DNA from: Paludibacteraceae bacterium
GTDB taxonomy: Bacteria; Bacteroidota; Bacteroidia; Bacteroidales; Paludibacteraceae
Direction of reading: 5' to 3'
NCBI GenBank assembly: GCA_017546705.1
Contig: JAFYSB010000008.1
Span: 4,741 to 68,740 of the forward strand
Length of the DNA stretch: 64,000 nt
In this document: in pieces, positions 3,708 through 49,903 of the stretch
How positions within the stretch are numbered: position 1 is the stretch's first letter
How the letters are laid out: every line of letters starts with the position of its first letter
Program-made: the position numbers and the translations under genes
The notes under the pieces: model-generated
Database searches by the model: none
The model's input: the letters and a program-made list of their open reading frames with translations, nothing else
Told to the model about the DNA's origin: nothing

Positions 3708-3735
3708 GTTTAGTCTTTAGAGTTTAGTGTTTAGA
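3708..3735. repeat. GTTTAGT-type heptamer run, copy C (no hairpin)
   Basis: Sequence gtttagtctttagagtttagtgtttaga. It contains the stop codon of the U32 gene (3724-3726) and encodes its last residues (..SKH). Confidence 0.7.
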
Positions 3736-5460
3736 GATGCGCATTTCGCAGTTTTTACAGTCGAACTCGAGGGACAGGCGTGTGCCGTTTTGCAAACGGA
3801 GATAGCGAGGTTCGTTTGCCATAGGGTTGATCTTGCGGCAATGACCTAACTCATGGAGTATGCAGTATTTGCAGGTCATGAGGGCAGTTGGCAGTTGGCA
3901 GTTGACAGTTGACAGTTGACAGTTGGCAGTTCTTATCTCGCATATGCTCGAACGATCACTCGCAGAGCTCGTGTACGATAGTTGAGCGTTGACAGTTGAT
4001 GGTTTGTTAATGACCTCTCTGCGCCATTGGTTGAGTTGGCTGGTTGGAATGAAATATGGGAAAGTGTCGGAGCATGGCTGTTCGTTAGCAAAGACTTGGA
4101 CGTCTTTGGCTACGAAATCCGTATCTCCGAGTTTACTAAGTTGCTGAACGATAGTTTGTAATGCGCGCTGTGGGTTGGTGGCTGGTTGATGCTCAGCCAC
4201 GAAAGTAGCGCTGTAATCTCCTATTGTCAAACGATAACCATCTGCTATAGCCTCAAAGCGAATTGCTGTAGGTATTTTGCGTTCAGCACGAAGCGAACGC
4301 AGAAATTCGTTGTCGAGATTGCGGTATAAGTTAGTGCCGACTTTGGGAAGCGATCCTCCTGACCTCCCTTCAAGGGAGGATGGTTGAAGGTTGGGATAAA
4401 TCCAGTCGCCTTCTATGCGGTTGATAGCGAAACCTTTGTCACCATAGCAAATGCCGTCACCATTGTGGAGGGTAATGCCATGCGCAAGTTCTACGCAGAT
4501 GGCGTTGTGTCGGGTAGCAATGACCTTACCAATCTTCTCGCCAGTGGATTTAGGTGTTTGCCAATTGGCCATGTTGGGGGTGCGACCATGCAAGAAGTAG
4601 TCGGTTTGTCCGCGGTGGAAGGTTTTAGCAGGGTTTGGAGTAAAGTCGTAATGATAGACGGATGGAGTAGATGCCTGTGCCAATGCAGGGTTGCTATCTA
4701 TCAGTTGGTCAAGCAATTGGCGATAGTATGCAACGATGTTGGTGACATAATCGCGGTCTTTTAATCGACCTTCAATCTTGAAAGTGGTCACGCCTGCCTC
4801 TATCATCTGAGCCAGGTGCTGGCTGCGGTCCATATCTTGGAGCGAGAGTAGGTAACGTTGGTGGATAGGGGCGCCATGGATATCCAGAATCTCATTGCCA
4901 TTTTTGTCGAGCAGGTCGTATCGTTGTCGGCATAGTTGTGCGCAACATCCGCGGTTGGCACTACGATCCATGAGTGCCTCAGAGAGGTAACAACGGCCAC
5001 TATAGCTCACGCATAAGGCACCGTGGACAAAGGCCTCGAGTTCGATGGACCCCTCCAACTCCCCTTCAAGGGGAGAGTTTTGTATAGTGTAGTTGATTTC
5101 TCTGATTTGGTCAATGGATAGTTCGCGGGCGAGAACTACGCGGCGGAAGCCCAATTGCTGCAAATGAAGTACTTGCTCAGGGGTACGATTGTCGCATTGT
5201 GTAGAGGCATGCAGGCGAATGGGAGGAAGGTCGTAGTTGAGGAGGTTGAGGTCTTGGATGATGAGTGCATCCACTCCCACCTTATATAACTCGTGCGCGA
5301 GCGCACACGCGCGAGGATATTCGTCGTCGTGGAGTAGGGTGTTGAGCGTTACAAGTACCTGAGCACCAAAGCGATGGGCGTATAGGACCAATTCGGCGAT
5401 GTCTTCTAAGGAGTTGCCTGCTGCTTGGCGCGCACCGAACTCGGGCGCACCGATATACAC
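3724..5460 (-). CDS. U32-family peptidase (YegQ/RlhA-like), repeat-riddled and without a canonical start codon for its conserved N-terminus
   Basis: U32 signature EAFVHGALCVSYSGRCYLSE. The conserved N-terminus SILAPARDLEVGIAAIQAGADAV continues in frame upstream of the ATG at 5460 to ~5535, and there is no ATG/GTG/TTG before an in-frame TGA. At least three in-frame repeat insertions are present. Confidence 0.8.
   Translation of the reverse strand: MYIGAPEFGARQAAGNSLEDIAELVLYAHRFGAQVLVTLNTLLHDDEYPRACALAHELYKVGVDALIIQDLNLLNYDLPPIRLHASTQCDNRTPEQVLHLQQLGFRRVVLARELSIDQIREINYTIQNSPLEGELEGSIELEAFVHGALCVSYSGRCYLSEALMDRSANRGCCAQLCRQRYDLLDKNGNEILDIHGAPIHQRYLLSLQDMDRSQHLAQMIEAGVTTFKIEGRLKDRDYVTNIVAYYRQLLDQLIDSNPALAQASTPSVYHYDFTPNPAKTFHRGQTDYFLHGRTPNMANWQTPKSTGEKIGKVIATRHNAICVELAHGITLHNGDGICYGDKGFAINRIEGDWIYPNLQPSSLEGRSGGSLPKVGTNLYRNLDNEFLRSLRAERKIPTAIRFEAIADGYRLTIGDYSATFVAEHQPATNPQRALQTIVQQLSKLGDTDFVAKDVQVFANEQPCSDTFPYFIPTSQLNQWRREVINKPSTVNAQLSYTSSASDRSSICEIRTANCQLSTVNCQLPTALMTCKYCILHELGHCRKINPMANEPRYLRLQNGTRLSLEFDCKNCEMRISKH
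3885..4000. repeat. CAGTTGA/CAGTTGG heptamer arrays flanking a ~47-nt core, inside the U32 CDS
   Basis: Array 3885-3931 (about 7 units) and array 3979-4000. Translated on the minus strand as ..STVNAQL...ANCQLSTVNCQLPT. Confidence 0.85.
4354..4384. repeat. Small palindromic element (CCTCCCTTCAAGGGAGG core) inside the U32 CDS
   Basis: Divergent relative of the 30-nt element at 5048 and 49243. Encodes ..SSLEGRSGGS.. Confidence 0.6.
5048..5077. repeat. 30-nt palindromic element GACCCCTCCAACTCCCCTTCAAGGGGAGAG inside the U32 CDS
   Basis: 29/30 identical to 49243-49272 in the same plus-strand orientation. Read on the minus strand it gives NSPLEGELEGS, inserted just before the conserved EAFVHGALC motif. 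Confidence 0.85.
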
Positions 5461-5527
5461 CGCATCAGCACCCGCTTGGATGGCTGCTATACCTACCTCT
5501 AAGTCGCGGGCAGGAGCGAGGATGGAT

Positions 5528-5564
5528 ATTAATTTTGAATTATTAATTTTGAATGATGAATTAG
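5528..5564. repeat. GAATTAT-family heptamer run at the 5' end of the U32 gene
   Basis: Sequence attaattttgaattattaattttgaatgatgaattag, related to the arrays at 48471 and 49646. Confidence 0.65.
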
Positions 5565-5630
5565 CAGACCCCTCTGGCTTTCAGCCATCTCCCCTAACTT
5601 AGGGGCGAAGTCTTGGGTTAGTAATTTGGG

Positions 5631-25685: not shown

Positions 25686-26708
25686 ATGAAATTCTTATTG
25701 GCTCCCATAGCATGGATTTATGGTTTCGTCGTATGGCTTCGTAATTTGCTATACGACGACCATATCCTGCATTCTACTCAGGTTAGCATACCTACCATTT
25801 GTGTGGGCAATCTTGCTGTAGGCGGAACAGGCAAAACACCAATGGCAGAGTACTTGATTTCTTTGCTCTCATCTGATTATAAGGTAGCGCTTCTTTCGCG
25901 TGGCTATGGGAGAAAAACAAAAGGCTTTCGTATTGCTAATGAGCATGATACAGCACAAACTATTGGTGATGAACCAATGCAAATCCACACCCATTTCCCC
26001 GATATACCTGTGGCTGTATGCGCCGACCGTGTGAAGGGCGTGAAACGTTTACAACAGTTGTATCCTGATTTGCAATGTGTAATCCTCGATGATGCGTACC
26101 AGCACCGCAAGTTGCGTTGCGGATTCTATGTGCTACTTACGCCTTATGACTGCCTATATACCAATGATCATCTGTTGCCATGGGGTAGGTTGCGCGATTT
26201 GCCTAATCAGAGTCACCGAGCCAATGTGGTGGTAGTGACTAAATGTCCGTCTCAAATGCAACCGATTGACAGACGAATAGTGAGCAATGCGTTGCATTTG
26301 GCATCGTACCAGCATTTGGTTTATTCTTCAATCGGTTATGCACCAATAGCATTGAATGGAACACCATTGCTTGTTACGGGCATTGCTAATCCGTTGCCAT
26401 TATTAGAGCATTTGAAAGCACAATGTCCAGATACCGAGTTGCTTGCATTTCCAGATCACCATGTGTTTACGAAACATGATATCGCTCAGATCATGCACAA
26501 AGCAGAACAATATAGCTGTGTTGTAACCACAGAAAAAGATTATATGCGTTTATTACAGACTCCATTGGTTGAACAGTTGGGTAACAAATTGCAAGTATTA
26601 GCTATTCAAACGGATTTGGGTATTGACAAAGAAGCTTTTGATCGTCAAATCCTTCTCTACGTCAGTGAGAATAACCGCAAGCTGTCAACTATTAACTGTC
26701 AACTGTAA
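25686..26708 (+). CDS. lpxK: Tetraacyldisaccharide 4'-kinase with a repeat-encoded C-terminal tail
   Basis: 340 aa. P-loop VGNLAVGGTGKTP. The last residues ..KLSTINCQL come from the heptamer array. Confidence 0.85.
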   Translation: MKFLLAPIAWIYGFVVWLRNLLYDDHILHSTQVSIPTICVGNLAVGGTGKTPMAEYLISLLSSDYKVALLSRGYGRKTKGFRIANEHDTAQTIGDEPMQIHTHFPDIPVAVCADRVKGVKRLQQLYPDLQCVILDDAYQHRKLRCGFYVLLTPYDCLYTNDHLLPWGRLRDLPNQSHRANVVVVTKCPSQMQPIDRRIVSNALHLASYQHLVYSSIGYAPIALNGTPLLVTGIANPLPLLEHLKAQCPDTELLAFPDHHVFTKHDIAQIMHKAEQYSCVVTTEKDYMRLLQTPLVEQLGNKLQVLAIQTDLGIDKEAFDRQILLYVSENNRKLSTINCQL

Positions 26709-26722
26709 ATTGTCAACTGTCC
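26682..26722. repeat. TCAACTG heptamer array (reverse orientation of the CAGTTGA family)
   Basis: Sequence ctgtcaactattaactgtcaactgtaaattgtcaactgtcc. It spans the lpxK stop and ends 3 nt before the next ATG (26726). Confidence 0.8.
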
Positions 26723-33865: not shown

Positions 33866-33930
33866 GGTGAAAGGGGAAAACTGGAAGGTTAAAAGTGAAA
33901 GGTTAAAGGTTAAAGGTTAGAGGTGAAAGG
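33866..33930. repeat. AGGTTAA heptamer array (~9 units)
   Basis: Units aggtgaa aggggaa aactgga aggttaa aagtgaa aggttaa aggttaa aggttag aggtgaa. It contains the stop (33917-33919) of the minus-strand gene. Confidence 0.85.
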
Positions 33931-34333
33931 CGTGGATTTTTGTACGAAGTATGAGGTAAACGATGCCTAATGCAATGATTATCCAAAGTACAATGGTGCA
34001 GCGTTTGTAGAATGGTGGTATATAGCGCTCAGGGGGGTGTTCTACTACGCGGTCACGATACTCCACGACGTGGATCGTGTCCGCTATAGTTGACAGTTGA
34101 CAGTTGAGAGTTGACAGTTGTTTGTCGCGATAAACTTCCTTCGTGATAAAGACTGTATCGTGGACTATGCGCTCGCGATAGACAATGCTGTCGTGGATAG
34201 TTGACAGTTGAGAGTTGACAGTTGACAGTTGGGAAACGCTGTTGTGATGTACACTGTCAATAGTACACTGTACACTGTCAAGGCTTTTGCATGAAGCAAG
34301 GAATACAAGGAAAAGGAGACAAAGATAACGCAT
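33917..34333 (-). CDS. Small lipoprotein with a C-terminal TM anchor (unimolecular-spanin-like topology), carrying two heptamer-array insertions
   Basis: Start at MRYLCLLFLVFLASC (lipobox). C-terminal TM CTIVLWIIIALGIVYLIL. Internal QLSTVNSQLST and QLSTLNCQLST are encoded by arrays at 34198-34232 and 34087-34120. Confidence 0.55.
   Translation of the reverse strand: MRYLCLLFLVFLASCKSLDSVQCTIDSVHHNSVSQLSTVNSQLSTIHDSIVYRERIVHDTVFITKEVYRDKQLSTLNCQLSTIADTIHVVEYRDRVVEHPPERYIPPFYKRCTIVLWIIIALGIVYLILRTKIHAFHL
34087..34232. repeat. Two CAGTTGA heptamer arrays (34087-34120 and 34198-34232) inside a CDS
   Basis: Sequences tagttgacagttgacagttgagagttgacagttg and tagttgacagttgagagttgacagttgacagttgg. Confidence 0.85.
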
Positions 34334-35144: not shown

Positions 35145-35155
35145 ACTCTTTTGGT

Positions 35156-35199
35156 GTTTAGTGAACGCGCCTTAGGCGCTACTGTTTAGTGTTTAGAGG
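35156..35199. repeat. GTTTAGT-hairpin-GTTTAGT composite repeat, copy D
   Basis: Sequence gtttagtgaacGCGCCttaGGCGCtactgtttagtgtttagagg. Confidence 0.8.
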
Positions 35200-35328
35200 T
35201 CAGGAGGGGGATTTGTAGCGGTATTTATAGTCAATGCCTCGTCGTAGTACGCCATTTGCATTGACTGACGCTTTGCGTCATTGGGCAAAGGCGACTCCTC
35301 CTCTTAAAGTCGAAAACAAGTTTCGCCT

Positions 35329-36240: not shown

Positions 36241-36293
36241 TGTTTTTTACTCGGTGCTCGGAATCCTCCATGCCGTCGGAGGGGGGGGGGAGT

Positions 36294-36406
36294 GTTTAGT
36301 GTTTAGTGAACGCGGCGTTGCCGCTACTGTTTAGTGTTTAGGGGTTAGTGTTTAGTGAACGCTCGCGGGGCGAGCTACTGTTTAGTGTTTAGTGTTTAGG
36401 GTTAGG
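36294..36406. repeat. GTTTAGT-hairpin composite repeat, copy E (two tandem units)
   Basis: Hairpins GCGGCgttGCCGC and GCTCGCgggGCGAGC, each flanked by gtttagtgtttagtgaac / tactgtttagtgtttag. It contains the stop at 36402. Confidence 0.85.
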
Positions 36407-46019: not shown

Positions 46020-46067
46020 TAGTTGACAATTGACAGTTAACAGTTGACAGTTAACGATTGACAATTG
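46020..46067. repeat. CAGTTGA-family heptamer array (~7 units)
   Basis: Sequence tagttgacaattgacagttaacagttgacagttaacgattgacaattg. It accounts for the spurious ORF 45900..46082. Confidence 0.85.
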
Positions 46068-46393: not shown

Positions 46394-46420
46394 GAAAATG
46401 GCGAAAAAATCGCCATTTTC
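46394..46420. terminator. Hairpin terminator downstream of the RAYT-like gene and its REP array
   Basis: GAAAATGGCGA-aaaaa-TCGCCATTTTC. Confidence 0.6.
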
Positions 46421-46421
46421 A

Positions 46422-46465
46422 GTTTAGAGGATGCGCCAGAGGCGCTATAGTTTAGAGGTTAGAGG
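46422..46465. repeat. GTTTAG-hairpin-GTTTAG composite repeat, copy F
   Basis: Sequence gtttagaggatGCGCCagaGGCGCtatagtttagaggttagagg. Confidence 0.8.
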
Positions 46466-46648
46466 CGGAGAATACTCGACTAAAGTCGAGATAATAGAAG
46501 AATATTTAGCAGAGATGTACCCGACTAGAAGTCGGGATAATGGAAGAATCTTTGGCGAGGATATTCCCAACTAGAAGTTGGGGCAATAGAAGAATATTGA
46601 ACGGAGTACCCGACTAGAAGTCGGGACAATGGAAGAATATTGACGAAT
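46466..46648. repeat. REP-like array: four ~45-bp tandem units, each with a hairpin
   Basis: Hairpins CTCGACtaaaGTCGAG, CCCGACtagaaGTCGGG, CCCAACtagaaGTTGGG and CCCGACtagaaGTCGGG, each followed by (a/c)aat(a/g)gaagaat. Stem changes are compensatory. Confidence 0.9.
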
Positions 46649-46652
46649 GGAA

Positions 46653-47789
46653 TTAGGAATGAGAGATGGAGCAAATCTCTTCTGCCATACCATTGAGAGC
46701 AACGCAGTCTTCGCGAGAGATGTGGTGCTTATCTGGGTCATGTTCCCAAGGACTGAGAATCAAGACACGACCTTCGGCGACGGCATCAAATAGCGCATCG
46801 GTGGGTTTGTAATAATCACGGAAACCATTGTCAGAAAGCACAATAAAAGGATGCTTCTCGGCAAGCAAGACAGACATAACCTCTTTCTCTTTAGGCGAAA
46901 TGAAAGGAGAGACCATAACCGTACCTTGGCGAGCAGCAAGAATACAAGCATTCATATAGTCGCGAAGTGGCTGGGTGTCGCCGTGTTGTTCTGCATCTTT
47001 AACCCACATGCTGCGCACATGGACGGGAGCGAAACATTTATTATGTAACAAGCGGATATTACCTACACCACTATATGAGCGCCCTGCAATCTCAATGCCC
47101 TCTTGCACACGGAAGAAACCTGGCATAATGCGCTTAGTAGCAAGGCGTTGGGGATTATTGATAATATACTGAATAGTGGCAGGTAATTGTCTGCGTTGTC
47201 CCATAGGACGGATATGCGGCATCTCTGTAAAAATAGGAAATAAAGCCCTATATTTTTCTTGACCAATGCGAGATGAAAGCGTGTCTGTGGTGGCTTGCAA
47301 AAGGGACAAAAGTTCGTGGTAGTTTTCCCGACTACAAGTCGTCAAACACCCCACCAATCCACGAGATTGGTCGGGGACCCCGCGGGCAATAGAAGAATTA
47401 TCAATGGGCGAATGAGATATAAGGAAGGAATAGGCACGTCCTATTTTCTTAACACCTTGCCAAAAGCCCTGCACTACACTTTTAATGCCGCGAGGCATCT
47501 TCTCACGCACATACCAGACGGCATGGATATGATCGGGCATTAAACAATAATGCAATACTTGTATTTCAGGGATTCGATTGGGGATATCCCATAACGCATT
47601 TACCAACATTCGACCTAAGGCAGTATATTCTACAGTAGCTTCTTTGGGATCATTGCCTGGGATAAGAAGCGTGCCTAAGAGCGGTTCGCGAGAGGGAATG
47701 GTGAGGGTAATATGATACAAGCCGACACCTTTCCATGTTGTGCCAGGCTCTTGCCATTGCCAGTTGTTATCGGAGTGGGAGGGCGTCAT
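46653..47789 (-). CDS. HUH/Y1 transposase-family protein (IS200/RAYT-like) with a C-terminal extension
   Basis: Start moved to MTPSHSDNNW (the -7 box at 47816-47823 lies inside the longer ORF). HUH motif LMPDHIHAVWYV. Downstream TIQYIINNPQRLATKRI matches the RAYT/COG1943 Y-x-x-x-N-P motif. About 140 extra C-terminal residues are of unknown fold. Confidence 0.65.
   Translation of the reverse strand: MTPSHSDNNWQWQEPGTTWKGVGLYHITLTIPSREPLLGTLLIPGNDPKEATVEYTALGRMLVNALWDIPNRIPEIQVLHYCLMPDHIHAVWYVREKMPRGIKSVVQGFWQGVKKIGRAYSFLISHSPIDNSSIARGVPDQSRGLVGCLTTCSRENYHELLSLLQATTDTLSSRIGQEKYRALFPIFTEMPHIRPMGQRRQLPATIQYIINNPQRLATKRIMPGFFRVQEGIEIAGRSYSGVGNIRLLHNKCFAPVHVRSMWVKDAEQHGDTQPLRDYMNACILAARQGTVMVSPFISPKEKEVMSVLLAEKHPFIVLSDNGFRDYYKPTDALFDAVAEGRVLILSPWEHDPDKHHISREDCVALNGMAEEICSISHS
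47322..47407. repeat. Interrupted REP unit inside the RAYT-like CDS
   Basis: cccgactacaagtcg + 43-nt insert + ggcaatagaagaattatcaatgg, translated in frame as ..DNSSIARGVPDQSRGLVGCLTTCSRENY.. Confidence 0.65.
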
Positions 47790-47815
47790 AAAGGGGGAAT
47801 ATTGAAATAATGGTG

Positions 47816-47823
47816 CAAAGGTA
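47816..47823 (-). promoter_or_regulatory. -7 promoter box TACCTTTG for the RAYT-like gene
   Basis: The plus strand reads CAAAGGTA, 27 nt upstream of the ATG at 47789. Confidence 0.55.
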
Positions 47824-47885
47824 GTGAAAATTTGGCAGATGAGCAAATTTTGGATAGGAAAAGTAGATGATTATAAGGGTAATGG

Positions 47886-47937
47886 ATGAGGAATACCCGA
47901 CCAGAAGTCGGGGGCATGGAAGAATGTTCAGCGAGGG
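47886..47937. repeat. REP unit upstream of the RAYT-like gene
   Basis: tacCCGACcagaaGTCGGGggcatggaagaatgttcagcgagg, in the same orientation as the 46466-46648 array. Confidence 0.8.
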
Positions 47938-48036
47938 GAAGAGCAGGGGCTTAAGAGGATTGCGGGATTTTGCCTGATAGGCTGGGGGGAGGGGATAACG
48001 TGCCAATGGGGCAAGAGGCATGTGAAAAGAAAAGCG

Positions 48037-48044
48037 TACTTTTG
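48037..48044 (+). promoter_or_regulatory. -7 promoter box TACTTTTG
   Basis: Matches TAnnTTTG, ~110 nt upstream of the ATG at 48153. Confidence 0.4.
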
Positions 48045-48152
48045 CAGCGCATTCGCAGAGCGAGTTTGAAAGGGTTAAACTGCTGGTGCGAAGCTAATAA
48101 AAAACTTAACCCAAATCGGTTATTGGATTTGGGTTTTAACAACAAACGCTTT

Positions 48153-48473
48153 ATGACAAAAAACTTGGAAAATGTGGTACGCAAGAATGTGCTGCAATTG
48201 ATTAACAAACATGACATCAACAAACAACAAATGGCATTGGAACTGGGAATGGATCCAGGACATCTGAGTCGCGTGATTAGCGGGAAAAGAAGTGTCACGA
48301 TGGAACATGTGGAGAAGTGGGCAGCGTACTTTGAGATTTCAGCCGCAGAACTGATGAGTGAACCGCATGTGAACGTGAAGTGTGGCGATGATCAGGTGAT
48401 ACGTATCGACCTGCATGTGCCGCATTACGATGCGTATATACGGCTGAAAAGAATGATACAAGAGTTGTACTAA
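48153..48473 (+). CDS. XRE-family helix-turn-helix protein
   Basis: Start chosen at MTKNLENV. NKQQMALELGMDPGHLSRVISGKRSVTMEHVEKWAAYFEISAAELM is a classic HTH_3 pattern. Confidence 0.65.
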   Translation: MTKNLENVVRKNVLQLINKHDINKQQMALELGMDPGHLSRVISGKRSVTMEHVEKWAAYFEISAAELMSEPHVNVKCGDDQVIRIDLHVPHYDAYIRLKRMIQELY

Positions 48474-48515
48474 TTATGAATTAAGAATTTTGAATTATGA
48501 AGTCTGAATATGAAG
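48471..48515. repeat. GAATTAT heptamer array spanning a start codon
   Basis: Sequence taattatgaattaagaattttgaattATGaagtctgaatatgaag. The ATG at 48497 is inside a repeat unit. Confidence 0.8.
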
Positions 48516-49549
48516 AGATCTTAGCCCGTAGGATTACTCCCGATACGACGGTGCCCCAACACGATTTTCTTTTCCGTTGGGGCGACCGCCCCTGCTTTGC
48601 TCGTGGGGAACTTGTAGCCCTCACGGGTAAAGCCAAGTCGGGCAAGACATTCGTCTGCTCAATACTGATGGCTCTGGGTGTGCGGAAGCAGATCATGGGG
48701 CTCTCACGTCTGCACGATGAGATGCTGCGCGTGGTGTGGATCGATACCGAGCAGAGCGAAGACTCGACGCACGAGATCCTGTGTCATCGTATCGGTTCGC
48801 TGATTGGGCAGGCGATACCCGATGAGCAATACTATGTGTATAACCTGCGTCGGGACAACTGGCAAGACCGCTTGCATTGGGCGGAGATGTGCATTGTGCA
48901 ACATAAGCCCGACCTGGTGATCTTTGATGGTATTCGCGATGTGGTAGGTGATATCAATAACTACTCCGAAGCACAGACGGTGCTGGATAAGTTGCTATCG
49001 CTTGCTTCATGGTCAGGAGCGTGTATTGTATGCGTGCTGCACCAGAACAAAGCGCTGGAAGACAAGACGTTGCGCGGCGCATTGGGTACGGAGTTGCAGA
49101 ACAAGAGCTACGAGACGTATGAGTGTCAGAAAGACCTGGACACGCGGTTGTTTACGTTGAAGCAGACCGCTACGCGGAAGTATGATATTGGTGCGAAGTT
49201 GGAGTTTACGGTGAGTCATGAGGGATTGCCCATATTGGAGAAGACCCCTCCAGCTCCCCTTCAAGGGGAGAGAACTGTGGGGAATGAGTATGCGCGACAA
49301 ATAAATGCTGCCACTATTGTACCGAAGGTATTTGGTAGTTTGACCAGCATGCGAGCATACGATTTTAAGCAAAAAGCGATGCGTTGTTTTCCAGAAGTGA
49401 ATTGCGAAACCGCCTACAGGGAGTTGCTGCGGCAGGCTTATCAGATGGAGCTGATTGACAAACGCAAGATCAACGACAATGAAACATATTATGACCTGCG
49501 TAGCACAAGCCAGAAGGGGCAAGTAGAGGAGATACCAAGCCTGTTTTGA
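48497..49549 (+). CDS. RecA-fold P-loop ATPase (AAA_25 / RepA-like, mobile-element-type)
   Basis: 350 aa. Walker A LTGKAKSGKTF. Walker B-like LVIFDGIRDV...CIVCVLHQNK. Carries the 30-nt palindromic element in frame (TPPAPLQGER). Confidence 0.6.
   Translation: MKSEYEEILARRITPDTTVPQHDFLFRWGDRPCFARGELVALTGKAKSGKTFVCSILMALGVRKQIMGLSRLHDEMLRVVWIDTEQSEDSTHEILCHRIGSLIGQAIPDEQYYVYNLRRDNWQDRLHWAEMCIVQHKPDLVIFDGIRDVVGDINNYSEAQTVLDKLLSLASWSGACIVCVLHQNKALEDKTLRGALGTELQNKSYETYECQKDLDTRLFTLKQTATRKYDIGAKLEFTVSHEGLPILEKTPPAPLQGERTVGNEYARQINAATIVPKVFGSLTSMRAYDFKQKAMRCFPEVNCETAYRELLRQAYQMELIDKRKINDNETYYDLRSTSQKGQVEEIPSLF
49243..49272. repeat. 30-nt palindromic element GACCCCTCCAGCTCCCCTTCAAGGGGAGAG inside the ATPase CDS
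   Basis: 29/30 identical to 5048-5077. Stem CTCCCCTT/AAGGGGAG. Confidence 0.85.
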
Positions 49550-49552
49550 ACA

Positions 49553-49631
49553 GGAGCCATGAGTCCCCCTTAGTATCATTCCCCCTATACAGGGGAATGT
49601 ATACATACTAAGAGGGTAGTCAAACGGCTCC
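49553..49631 (+). other. Nested three-stem hairpin element directly after the ATPase stop codon
   Basis: GGAGCC...GGCTCC encloses CCCCCTTAGTAT...ATACTAAGAGGG, which encloses CATTCCCC-ctataca-GGGGAATG. Confidence 0.6.
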
Positions 49632-49645
49632 GATCAAGGGGGGGA

Positions 49646-49703
49646 GAATTATGAATTAAAAATTATGAATTATGAATTAAGAATTAAGAATTTTGAATTA
49701 TGA
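49646..49703. repeat. GAATTAT heptamer array (~8 units) spanning a start codon
   Basis: Units gaattat gaattaa aaattat gaattat gaattaa gaattaa gaatttt gaattATGag. It shares the 23-mer gaattaagaattttgaattatga with 48477-48499. Confidence 0.85.
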
Positions 49704-49903
49704 GAGCGAGATTGTATGTTCCATTTGAACAACTAAAGGGCAAAATCGGTGAAGATTATTATGCCCGAGTATTGTACGGGAAACAGGTGATTCAACGATG
49801 TCCGAGACGATATAAGCCTCCTACACCAGCACAACTGGAAGCGAGAAGACGGTTTGCGGAAAAATATGGGAAAGGTAGGGGGAAAGTACTGGATGGTAAT
49901 TGA
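49700..49903 (+). CDS. Small basic hypothetical protein (paralog family)
   Basis: 67 aa. LKGKIGEDYYARVLYGKQVIQR...PPTPAQLEARRRFAEKYG. Confidence 0.45.
   Translation: MRARLYVPFEQLKGKIGEDYYARVLYGKQVIQRCPRRYKPPTPAQLEARRRFAEKYGKGRGKVLDGN

Follow-up and report, generated by a model that had tools for sequence, protein, structure and literature searches.

A stretch of 64,000 nucleotides from a Paludibacteraceae bacterium of the gut or rumen type (GenBank assembly GCA_017546705.1, contig JAFYSB010000008.1), in the following referred to as the window, carries a short DNA repeat of 26–30 nt that is found in frame within two unrelated genes (Table 1). The first of these, on the minus strand, encodes a U32-family protein (Pfam match to Peptidase_U32 with E=1.5e-68) and includes three hypervariable simple-sequence sites; it hosts two copies of the repeat. 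The second, on the plus strand, encodes a P-loop ATPase of the AAA_25 type, in which the copy is located past the ATPase domain (residues 28–186) in a hypervariable linker. This 30-mer is a nucleotide-level element and not a protein motif, as unrelated genes use the identical stretch of DNA in three reading frames and from two strands. A search of the PDB with the U32 protein sequence gave no match at E<=1e-5. A weak AlphaFold model (50 close relatives; mean predicted local distance difference test score 56.6), used for the N-terminal barrel only, would place copy 1 in a helix-to-strand loop of that barrel, between helix 145–157 and strand 169–175.

The original prediction had described two 30-nt copies, identical at 29 of 30 positions and in the same plus-strand orientation, of which one encodes ..QNSPLEGELEGS directly ahead of IELEAFVHGALC in the U32 gene and the other TPPAPLQGER in the ATPase gene, as well as a diverged third copy within the U32 gene. 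All of this was verified. Copies 1 and 2 are the sole matches at <=3 mismatches in the window, where shuffled sequences lead to an expectation of 0.00, and the third copy (GATCCTCCTGACCTCCCTTCAAGGGAGGAT) could be placed precisely; compared to copy 1 it exhibits a compensatory change on both sides of the stem, from CTCCCC/GGGGAG to CCTCCC/GGGAGG. All three copies (three in 64 kb) are situated inside open reading frames (ORFs). Some other parts of the prediction stood only partially or not at all. The sequence was said to lack stop codons, which is true for five of its six frames, one minus-strand frame containing a TGA. Its length was said to be a multiple of three, which applies merely to the part common to both copies, as the lengths of the real inserts vary from locus to locus. 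Finally, the hairpin of the proposed palindrome is present (7-bp stem, 3-nt loop, approximately -6.9 kcal/mol computed as DNA), but an asymmetric 5′ mirror arm had been missed, so that the element is no plain palindrome.

Table 1. Positions of the element copies, their host genes and other repeats within the window.
Feature	Positions	Strand	Details
U32-family gene (Peptidase_U32 + DUF3656)	3724..5547	-	host of copies 1 and 3
Copy 1	5048..5077	+	arm CCCCTC 5050-5055; loop CAA 5056-5058; pyrimidine stem CTCCCC 5059-5064; loop TTCAA 5065-5069; purine stem GGGGAG 5070-5075; minus-strand translation SPLEGELEG(S)
Copy 3 (diverged)	4352..4381	+	arm TCCTCC 4354-4359; loop TGA; stem CCTCCC 4363-4368; loop TTCAA; stem GGGAGG 4374-4379; minus-strand peptide SSLEGRSGGS
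AAA_25 P-loop ATPase gene	48497..49549	+	host of copy 2 (residues ~249-258)
Copy 2	49243..49272	+	arm CCCCTC 49245-49250; loop CAG 49251-49253; stem CTCCCC 49254-49259; loop TTCAA 49260-49264; stem GGGGAG 49265-49270; plus-strand translation TPPAPLQGE(R)
Copy 2, extra 3′ arm	49277..49282	+	GTGGGG, mirrors GGGGAG with T opposite A
Spacer with hairpin, upstream of the U32 gene	5567-5609		CCCCTA-act-TAGGGG
Tandem array beside RAYT-like gene	46473-46641		46-nt tandem array with ACCCGACTAGAAGTCGGG
RAYT-like gene	46653-47846	-	397-aa ORF
Hairpin on other side of RAYT-like gene	47893-47928		one copy
HTH_3 + AAA_25 gene pair	47970-49720		GAATTAT heptamer arrays on both sides
Nested hairpin	49565-49620		immediately 3′ of the ATPase stop codon
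Period-7 arrays	3708-3736, 3883-3931, 5527-5563, 26682-26721, 33885-33930, 34088-34231, 36291-36403, 46023-46067, 48472-48514, 49646-49703		
Composite intergenic repeats	2028-2070, 2734-2790, 35150-35203, 36295-36400, 46416-46469		[GTTTAGT]n-AAC-GCGxx..xxCGC-TAC-[GTTTAGT]n

An alignment of all family members revealed that the conserved 5′ arm mirrors the pyrimidine stem and is neither a direct nor an inverted copy of it. In the main form the arm CCCCTC is combined with the stem CTCCCC and the purine stem GGGGAG. At site 2 of the U32 gene and in the related locus L129 these three blocks are CCCTCC, CCTCCC and GGGAGG, in L130 they are CCCTCTC, CTCTCCC and GGGAGAG, and in L067 and L089 they are CCCCTCCC, CCCTCCCC and GGGGAGGG; L124 represents an imperfect, flipped case (CCTaCCCC, CCCCTCC and GGAGGGG). 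The third arm co-varies with the stem in at least four stem variants. Within the core family the mirror match amounts to 6/6 positions and the direct-repeat match usually to 4–5, and unrelated pyrimidine hairpins do not exhibit any mirror arm. The arm TCCTCC of copy 3 has one mismatch to the expected mirror CCCTCC, which occurs in perfect form in the relatives L129 and L133, and copy 2 contains a third arm on both sides (minus-strand motif match at 49254-49282 with one mismatch). A generic scan for a mirror arm combined with a hairpin over the whole 64-kb window yielded two perfect motifs and three at <=1 mismatch, all of them being the elements described here, compared with 0.01 and 0.06, respectively, in 200 dinucleotide shuffles. 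An analogous control scan of the window for direct-repeat arms yielded no motif. As copying yields direct or inverted repeats and not mirror repeats, this covariation suggests a constraint on all three blocks.

On the G-rich strand the blocks follow each other in the order pyrimidine stem, 5-nt loop, purine stem, 3-nt loop and mirrored purine stem, which permits G.G-C and A.A-T triads; the C-rich strand is the pyrimidine-motif counterpart. By definition, an intrastrand triplex (ITxF) motif combines, in succession and on a single strand, a block of pyrimidines, the purine block which pairs with it in the Watson-Crick manner and a third block which is the mirror of either of these two; its stems measure 6–15 nt and its loops 1–6 nt (Holder et al., 2015, PMC4666352). 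The arrangement CCCCTC-caa-CTCCCC-ttcaa-GGGGAG, in which each arm has 6 nt and the two loops have 3 and 5 nt, falls within this definition, and both the covariation of the arms and a conservation of stems over loops are found. The architecture, as read from the sequence, is of the intrastrand triplex type, with the hairpin being the part that was computed. The earlier picture of a palindrome is thereby extended by a third, mirror-repeat arm.

The element is not restricted to the two genes in the window. Public metagenome contigs were scanned with an element-specific pattern and yielded eight loci. Six of these are orthologues of the U32 gene and the other two are new hosts, namely a DsbD-like thiol:disulfide gene, in which the element is read as TPLEGEMEGS just ahead of the DsbD_TM domain, and a gene for an RsmE-like 16S rRNA methyltransferase, in which it is read as DPSNSPSRGG. 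The DsbD-like gene (L130) includes a second, variant element 25 nt away in inverted orientation. Hence, the same DNA occurs in three frames, on two strands and in four unrelated genes (U32, ATPase, DsbD-like and RsmE-like). Longer-armed versions were found in two metagenome-assembled genomes of Bacteroidia, in one (L067) translated as the C-terminal tail of a xanthine-dehydrogenase-like gene and in the other (L089) inside MurG, beside in-frame GGATACG heptamers. The commonest reading is the SPLEGE frame, which is used at two sites of U32, in DsbD, in MurG and in the xanthine-dehydrogenase-like tail. In 328 kb of Bacteroidales DNA all perfect motifs lie in ORFs except for one upstream of the U32 start (L129). 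Since assemblies from ENA, JGI, NCBI and Logan contain copies independently of each other, these are unlikely to be artefacts of assembly. The idea of a small mobile element is therefore borne out as far as a dispersed DNA-level repeat in at least four unrelated genes is concerned, while we infer its mobility; the core idea that genic copies survive in frame is supported.

Whether the residues encoded by the element are derived or ancestral was assessed by comparison with orthologues. Among 148 diverse U32 representatives (full-length matches with 42–60% identity), the segment between LS.. and ..GALC at site 1 comprises 26–27 residues in 142 proteins, compared to 37 in the window, so that approximately 11 residues are absent there. 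At site 2, which holds copy 3, distant U32 proteins typically contain 24–25 residues and the protein of the window contains 34, i.e., approximately 10 more. As judged from these alignments, both U32 copies are derived additions of ~10–11 residues. Likewise, RsmE orthologues with 74–79% identity (232 aa) lack the residues of the element, and inserts occur in one subclade only. The ATPase represents a different case, as all relatives down to 67% identity contain a linker of similar length but unrelated sequence; here, the element has replaced a part of a pre-existing variable linker. The claim of a derived insertion could have been refuted by homologous residues in distant relatives, yet distant U32 and RsmE orthologues do not contain them. 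In-frame placement within unrelated functional genes, with the residues missing from distant orthologues, is thus what was found.

In close relatives, the host sites turned out to be hypervariable. U32 genes which are otherwise 99% identical differ wholesale across ~90 nt at site 1, where the window contains degenerate heptamers and the element, and L121 contains CTACACC heptamers and a different hairpin (GCGACGAAGTCGC). Four or five alternative cassettes occur at this site across 120 relatives, and sites 2 and 3 behave likewise. The allele at site 1 is even polymorphic within clusters of U32 backbones which diverge by <=5% of their amino acids: the largest of them comprises 10 proteins with the element, 35 with a heptamer array plus GCGAC and one with a short form, and the element allele was found in four backbone clusters. 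This polymorphism within clusters suggests a frequent exchange of alleles or repeated insertion. The linker of the ATPase contains either the element or period-7 arrays (NCGGATA, GAGGCGA or CAAGRAN). Among the alleles of RsmE are the 30-mer, a tandem double, another variant of the element (PTPNPSLKGGE) which is shared with the ATPase, a short GN form and a KEAKGERREA form, assigned to the heptamer type on the basis of its peptide alone, with 27 nt of the ‘empty’ allele being replaced by 51 nt. A clean presence or absence of 30 nt in related strains was consequently not borne out, heptamer arrays or other hairpins being found at the same sites. Target-site duplications, for which a check had been proposed, were absent from the copies and the RsmE alleles, and a comparison of the flanks of the copies revealed no common target, the flanks being unrelated between copies.

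Other cassettes at these sites contain small hairpins as well. GCGAAGC and GCGACGAAGTCGC occur in cassettes at U32 site 3 (L128, L136, L137 and L138) and site 1 (L121 and L138), and further U32 linker cassettes contain GCCCGCAGGGC and GGCGGTACGCC. GCGAAGC forms a very stable DNA mini-hairpin with a GNA triloop. Structure-prone DNA is a general property of the variable sites of U32. At the C-terminus of U32, NCQLSTV repeats were observed, in which three heptamers correspond to seven residues and the number of which changes from strain to strain in steps of 21 nt. Period-7 arrays (GTTTAGN, CAGTTGR, GAATTAT and AAGGTTA) also fill many intergenic spacers of the window and extend into genes, and their units are similar to repeats of the TAACTGA type, which have been described from a few Bacteroidetes. 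In the composite intergenic repeats, which often follow directly after a terminator-like hairpin, the GC hairpin varies in sequence and remains paired (GCGGCAGGTCGC, GCGCCTTAGGCGC and GCTCGCGGGGCGAGC).

A heptamer array also covers the region of the U32 gene which holds the ATG in relatives. The start codon is uncertain here (5460–5563), as ATG, GTG and TTG are absent upstream of the conserved N-terminus ..ILAPARDLEVG.., and the first canonical start, a GTG at 5460, would cost approximately 29 conserved residues. The spacer upstream of this gene starts with GACCCCTC, as does the element, and includes the hairpin CCCCTA-act-TAGGGG behind an inserted small hairpin. At the equivalent position L129 exhibits a perfect three-arm copy, and the spacer may represent a decayed intergenic copy.

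Within the element, stems are better conserved than loops. In three U32 orthologues 56%, 59% and 70% of the identical residues are encoded by the same codons, whereas within the element 9/9, 8/8 and 8/8 codons, respectively, are unchanged. The differences in U32 elements are confined to the middle of the 3-nt loop (TTG, TGG or TCG) or to positions just beyond the arms, and the ATPase elements of the window and of L123 differ in loop bases only. This conservation may result from selection on a DNA fold or from homogenisation or recent spread, and the data fit either.

Taken together, the explanation which we favour, with moderate confidence, is that of a short structured DNA repeat of the non-coding type, with the architecture of a triplex motif, which has spread in frame into surface loops and inter-domain linkers of unrelated housekeeping genes. 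Its copies would be transferred between structure-prone sites not through cut-and-paste transposition but through template switching associated with replication or repair, or through ectopic gene conversion. This is suggested by the ragged borders, by replacement instead of insertion, by the tandem duplication of a variant (L140) and by the lack of a link to a transposase. Coding copies would survive only if they are in frame, free of stops, located in tolerant loops and encoding flexible peptides rich in G, P, S and E, and the arms would be kept by ongoing homogenisation against other copies or by selection on the DNA fold. Shine-Dalgarno pairing plays only a small role in Bacteroidota, which may leave intragenic sequences of the GGGGAG type harmless. 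The GC skew of the window was uninformative for orienting the copies relative to replication.

Several points weigh against this explanation. The arms of 6 nt are the minimum permitted for the triplex-motif class, and even scrambled genomes frequently contain triplex motifs of 6–7 nt (Holder et al., 2015, PMC4666352). In addition, the arms are of low complexity (runs of C plus one T), so that the distinction between mirror and direct repeats rests on a handful of variants, and the copy number is low (three in 64 kb). Triplex formation is a prediction for this element, and on the C-rich strand it would require protonated cytosines; for TM_ECO, the best described motif used for comparison below, a triplex was found in vitro but no footprint in vivo (PMC4666352). 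The copying mechanism is one that we infer. Moreover, the conservation of the arms could reflect a recent spread of alleles by homologous recombination between strains, which clearly occurs at the host sites, as seen from the mosaic tracts of ~90 nt and the incongruent alleles.

Of the alternatives, a mini-transposon of the kind of repetitive extragenic palindromes (REPs) or their doublets (REPINs), which an HUH tyrosine transposase (REP-associated tyrosine transposase, RAYT, or IS200/IS605-like) would move in single-stranded form, survives best, but still appears unlikely. Enzymes of this type recognise hairpins and leave no target duplication, which fits with a short GC hairpin of 20–40 nt without such duplications, and the inverted pair of elements in the DsbD-like gene as well as the intragenic REPs known from other phyla (Di Nocera et al., 2013, PMC3733652) point in the same direction. 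The window even encodes a RAYT-like protein with HIH and YIINNP motifs and a weak, partial match to NCBIfam REP_Tyr_transpos (E=9.8e-5), and four copies of a hairpin repeat surround the gene of this protein in a REPtron-like layout. However, the score of this match (22 bits) is far under the cutoff of 80, there is no Pfam match, and the flanking hairpins (ACCCGACTAGAAGTCGGG) are unrelated to the 30-mer and were found only there in the window, which revealed no linkage of the 30-mer to any transposase. Furthermore, the GTAG/CGTC tag of the REP superfamilies is absent from every copy, the flanks share no common target sequence, and transposition by HUH enzymes leaves the co-varying mirror arm unexplained.

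Even less probable is a function of the element as a nucleic-acid signal within genes, for example as an antisense terminator, as a hairpin which stabilises mRNA or pauses ribosomes at the borders of domains, or as a site for protein binding or replication pausing. Diverged orthologues keep the arms at synonymous sites, the elements are located at domain borders or in loops, and the antisense strand of copy 1 resembles a terminator, with the hairpin being followed by AGTTTTGTAT. This T-run is absent, however, from copy 2 and from the RsmE and DsbD copies, so that a terminator fits copy 1 only, the orientation relative to transcription varies between genes, and many close relatives thrive with different cassettes or none at the same site. 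For the TM_ECO/PIT repeat, no promoter or terminator activity was seen in an earlier study, as cited by Holder et al. (PMC4666352), whose own analysis of where the motifs are located did not point to regulation either (Holder et al., 2015, PMC4666352).

It is very improbable that there is no element at all and that the sequences are by-products of unstable simple-sequence linkers, generated by slippage and strain-to-strain recombination, with the similarity between genes being incidental. Such an origin would fit with host sites which are hypervariable and full of heptamer arrays and diverse small hairpins, with mosaic recombination tracts of ~90 nt in otherwise 99% identical genes and with site alleles which are incongruent with the gene backbone. 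Nevertheless, four unrelated genes agree in 29–30 of 30 nt and read them in different frames, which makes an independent origin impossible and largely refutes this idea; slippage yields direct or inverted repeats instead of co-varying mirror repeats, and homologous recombination between strains cannot transfer segments between non-homologous genes. Conservation at the level of the protein, i.e., of a flexible linker peptide (PLEGE or PLQGE) arising by convergence or by exchange of coding segments, is scarcely credible, since the encoded peptides are indeed rich in G, P, S and E and linker-like, with the SPLEGE frame being the commonest, but the same DNA yields three unrelated peptides (SPLEGELEGS, TPPAPLQGE and DPSNSPSRGG) and synonymous positions are conserved, which refutes it as the primary cause. 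The properties of the peptides probably act solely as a filter on the surviving frames.

The favoured explanation, a structured repeat copied between permissive sites, can be extended into a much bolder and doubtful proposal, to which we assign a small probability: composite modules, in which heptamer arrays are combined with small hairpins or elements of the triplex type, might constitute an active, structure-driven cassette system across Bacteroidia. This system would repeatedly rewrite fixed permissive sites in housekeeping genes, and purifying selection would act on the three-arm element as a dual-coded, triplex-forming DNA fold which stalls replication or attracts repair and thereby programmes local hypervariability. 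If true, this would be the first case of intrastrand triplex repeats acting within ORFs and generating diversity of protein linkers. If already the more restrained explanation holds, repeats with a triplex motif extend beyond the intergenic DNA of Proteobacteria, and a short version in essential genes of Bacteroidales adds ~10 residues and marks sites of very fast turnover between strains. The sites would then serve as a natural model in which to study whether local hypervariability is driven by non-B DNA structures and in what way short repeats spread in the absence of a transposase. Annotators and protein modellers would need to be cautious, as some loop insertions in Bacteroidales proteins would be DNA repeats and not protein features, and the sites of the element could be used as markers for strain typing. 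The importance of the element would grow considerably with a demonstrated fold or a demonstrated mechanism of cassette exchange.

The surroundings of copy 2 deserve a separate description. The ATPase gene forms a pair with an HTH_3 gene, and this pair is located in quite different gene neighbourhoods in the relatives L122, L123, L124 and L126. As the neighbourhoods differ between relatives, the pair may be a small mobile module. It exhibits weak matches to primase/helicase-like PHROG families. Searches of viral contigs with the element pattern and with the ATPase protein yielded no match and thus no evidence for a phage origin. The nested hairpin downstream of the ATPase gene (CCCCTTAGTAT..TTCCCC-ctataca-GGGGAA..ATACTAAGAGGG) is kept in L123 (~7195), L124 (~10136), L125 (~1586) and L126 (~11074), although the ATPase homologues there are only 67–83% identical.

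A scan of genome contigs with the 17-nt core palindrome showed that this core is common in Proteobacteria and hence an unspecific query; three or four loci of Bacteroidia were among the matches listed. Among these listed matches (L001–L120), the same 17-nt hairpin constitutes the core of a conserved, otherwise unrelated-looking intergenic repeat in many Proteobacteria, Nitrospirota and Geobacter-type genomes, with the layout CC-CTCCCCTTCAAGGGGAG-GG-TTG-GGGTGGGG-AT-GGGG (e.g., L104 3100-3240 and L006 5613-6313). This repeat frequently occurs in inverted pairs with a spacing of 70–110 nt, and its G-rich tail is compatible with a third arm of the GT type or with a G-quadruplex. Neither a match in Rfam nor a paper in a literature search by sequence was found for it. 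A pair of proteobacterial copies in L077, 3.6 kb apart, was considered as the ends of a transposon and rejected, as ordinary housekeeping genes are located in between.

With regard to known systems, neither a relevant Rfam family nor, in a literature search by sequence, a matching paper was found for the 30-mer. Bacterial intrastrand triplex motifs are abundant, and one of them, TM_ECO, is identical to BoxC and the PIT element (Holder et al., 2015, PMC4666352; Hoyne et al., 2000, as cited in PMC4666352). Its consensus, 5′-CCCTCNCCC N3-6 GGGNGAGGG N3 GGGNGAGGG, consists of a C-rich stem, a loop of 3–6 nt, a G-rich stem, a 3-nt loop and another G-rich stem; its loops are less conserved than its stems, inverted pairs occur, its neighbourhoods are unusually variable and it has no link to transposons or mobile elements (PMC4666352). 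The element described here shares with it the order of the blocks on the G-rich strand, the richness in G and C, the stronger conservation of stems than of loops, occasional inverted pairs, the lack of a link to transposons and a location in locally hypervariable DNA. Unlike TM_ECO, however, it has arms of 6 instead of 9 nt, does not match the consensus and occurs in Bacteroidota instead of Proteobacteria. In E. coli MG1655, TM_ECO is always intergenic (PMC4666352), whereas nearly all copies of the present element lie in frame within genes. By its sequence, the element is thus not a member of TM_ECO/BoxC and has solely the same architecture.

Intragenic REPs, tagged with GTAG or CGTC (Di Nocera et al., 2013, PMC3733652), and Rickettsia palindromic elements (RPEs), of which the first described ones are ~150 bp long and each encode a conserved peptide, as far as a review presents them (PMC10969869), are comparable in that functional housekeeping genes which are unrelated to each other host short palindromes in frame; these presumably occupy tolerant loops and add ~10–50 residues. 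In contrast to the REP families, the GTAG/CGTC tag is absent from the 30-mer, and unlike RPEs with ~150 bp and one conserved peptide each, the element comprises 26–30 nt and is read in three frames. A mirrored third arm is undescribed for both. The REP/REPIN-RAYT system resembles the situation in the window with respect to a hairpin repeat without target duplication and a RAYT-like gene with flanking hairpins, but differs from it, as another hairpin than that of the 30-mer surrounds this gene and extragenic positions are not where the copies lie; no population of REPIN doublets was seen among the three genic copies in 64 kb, and one inverted pair exists in L130. Miniature inverted-repeat transposable elements exhibit terminal inverted repeats, target-site duplications and a length of ~70–300 bp, whereas the element of 26–30 nt has no target-site duplication.

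Heptanucleotide tandem repeats are a known feature of bacteria, covered by the term long simple sequence repeats (LSSR; Mrazek et al., 2007, as cited in PMC4679880), and those of TAACTGA have been described with five Bacteroidetes among their hosts (MacGregor, 2015, PMC4679880). The alternative cassettes and many spacers of the window are likewise of period 7 and include units of the AACTGTC type, which are close to TAACTGA, and the heptamer arrays here are also found in frame in genes, where three units correspond to seven residues. These repeats are, however, tandem arrays without a hairpin, while the 30-mer is a single structured unit. The element is a DNA repeat of a known general kind in an unusual place, namely in protein-coding sequence.

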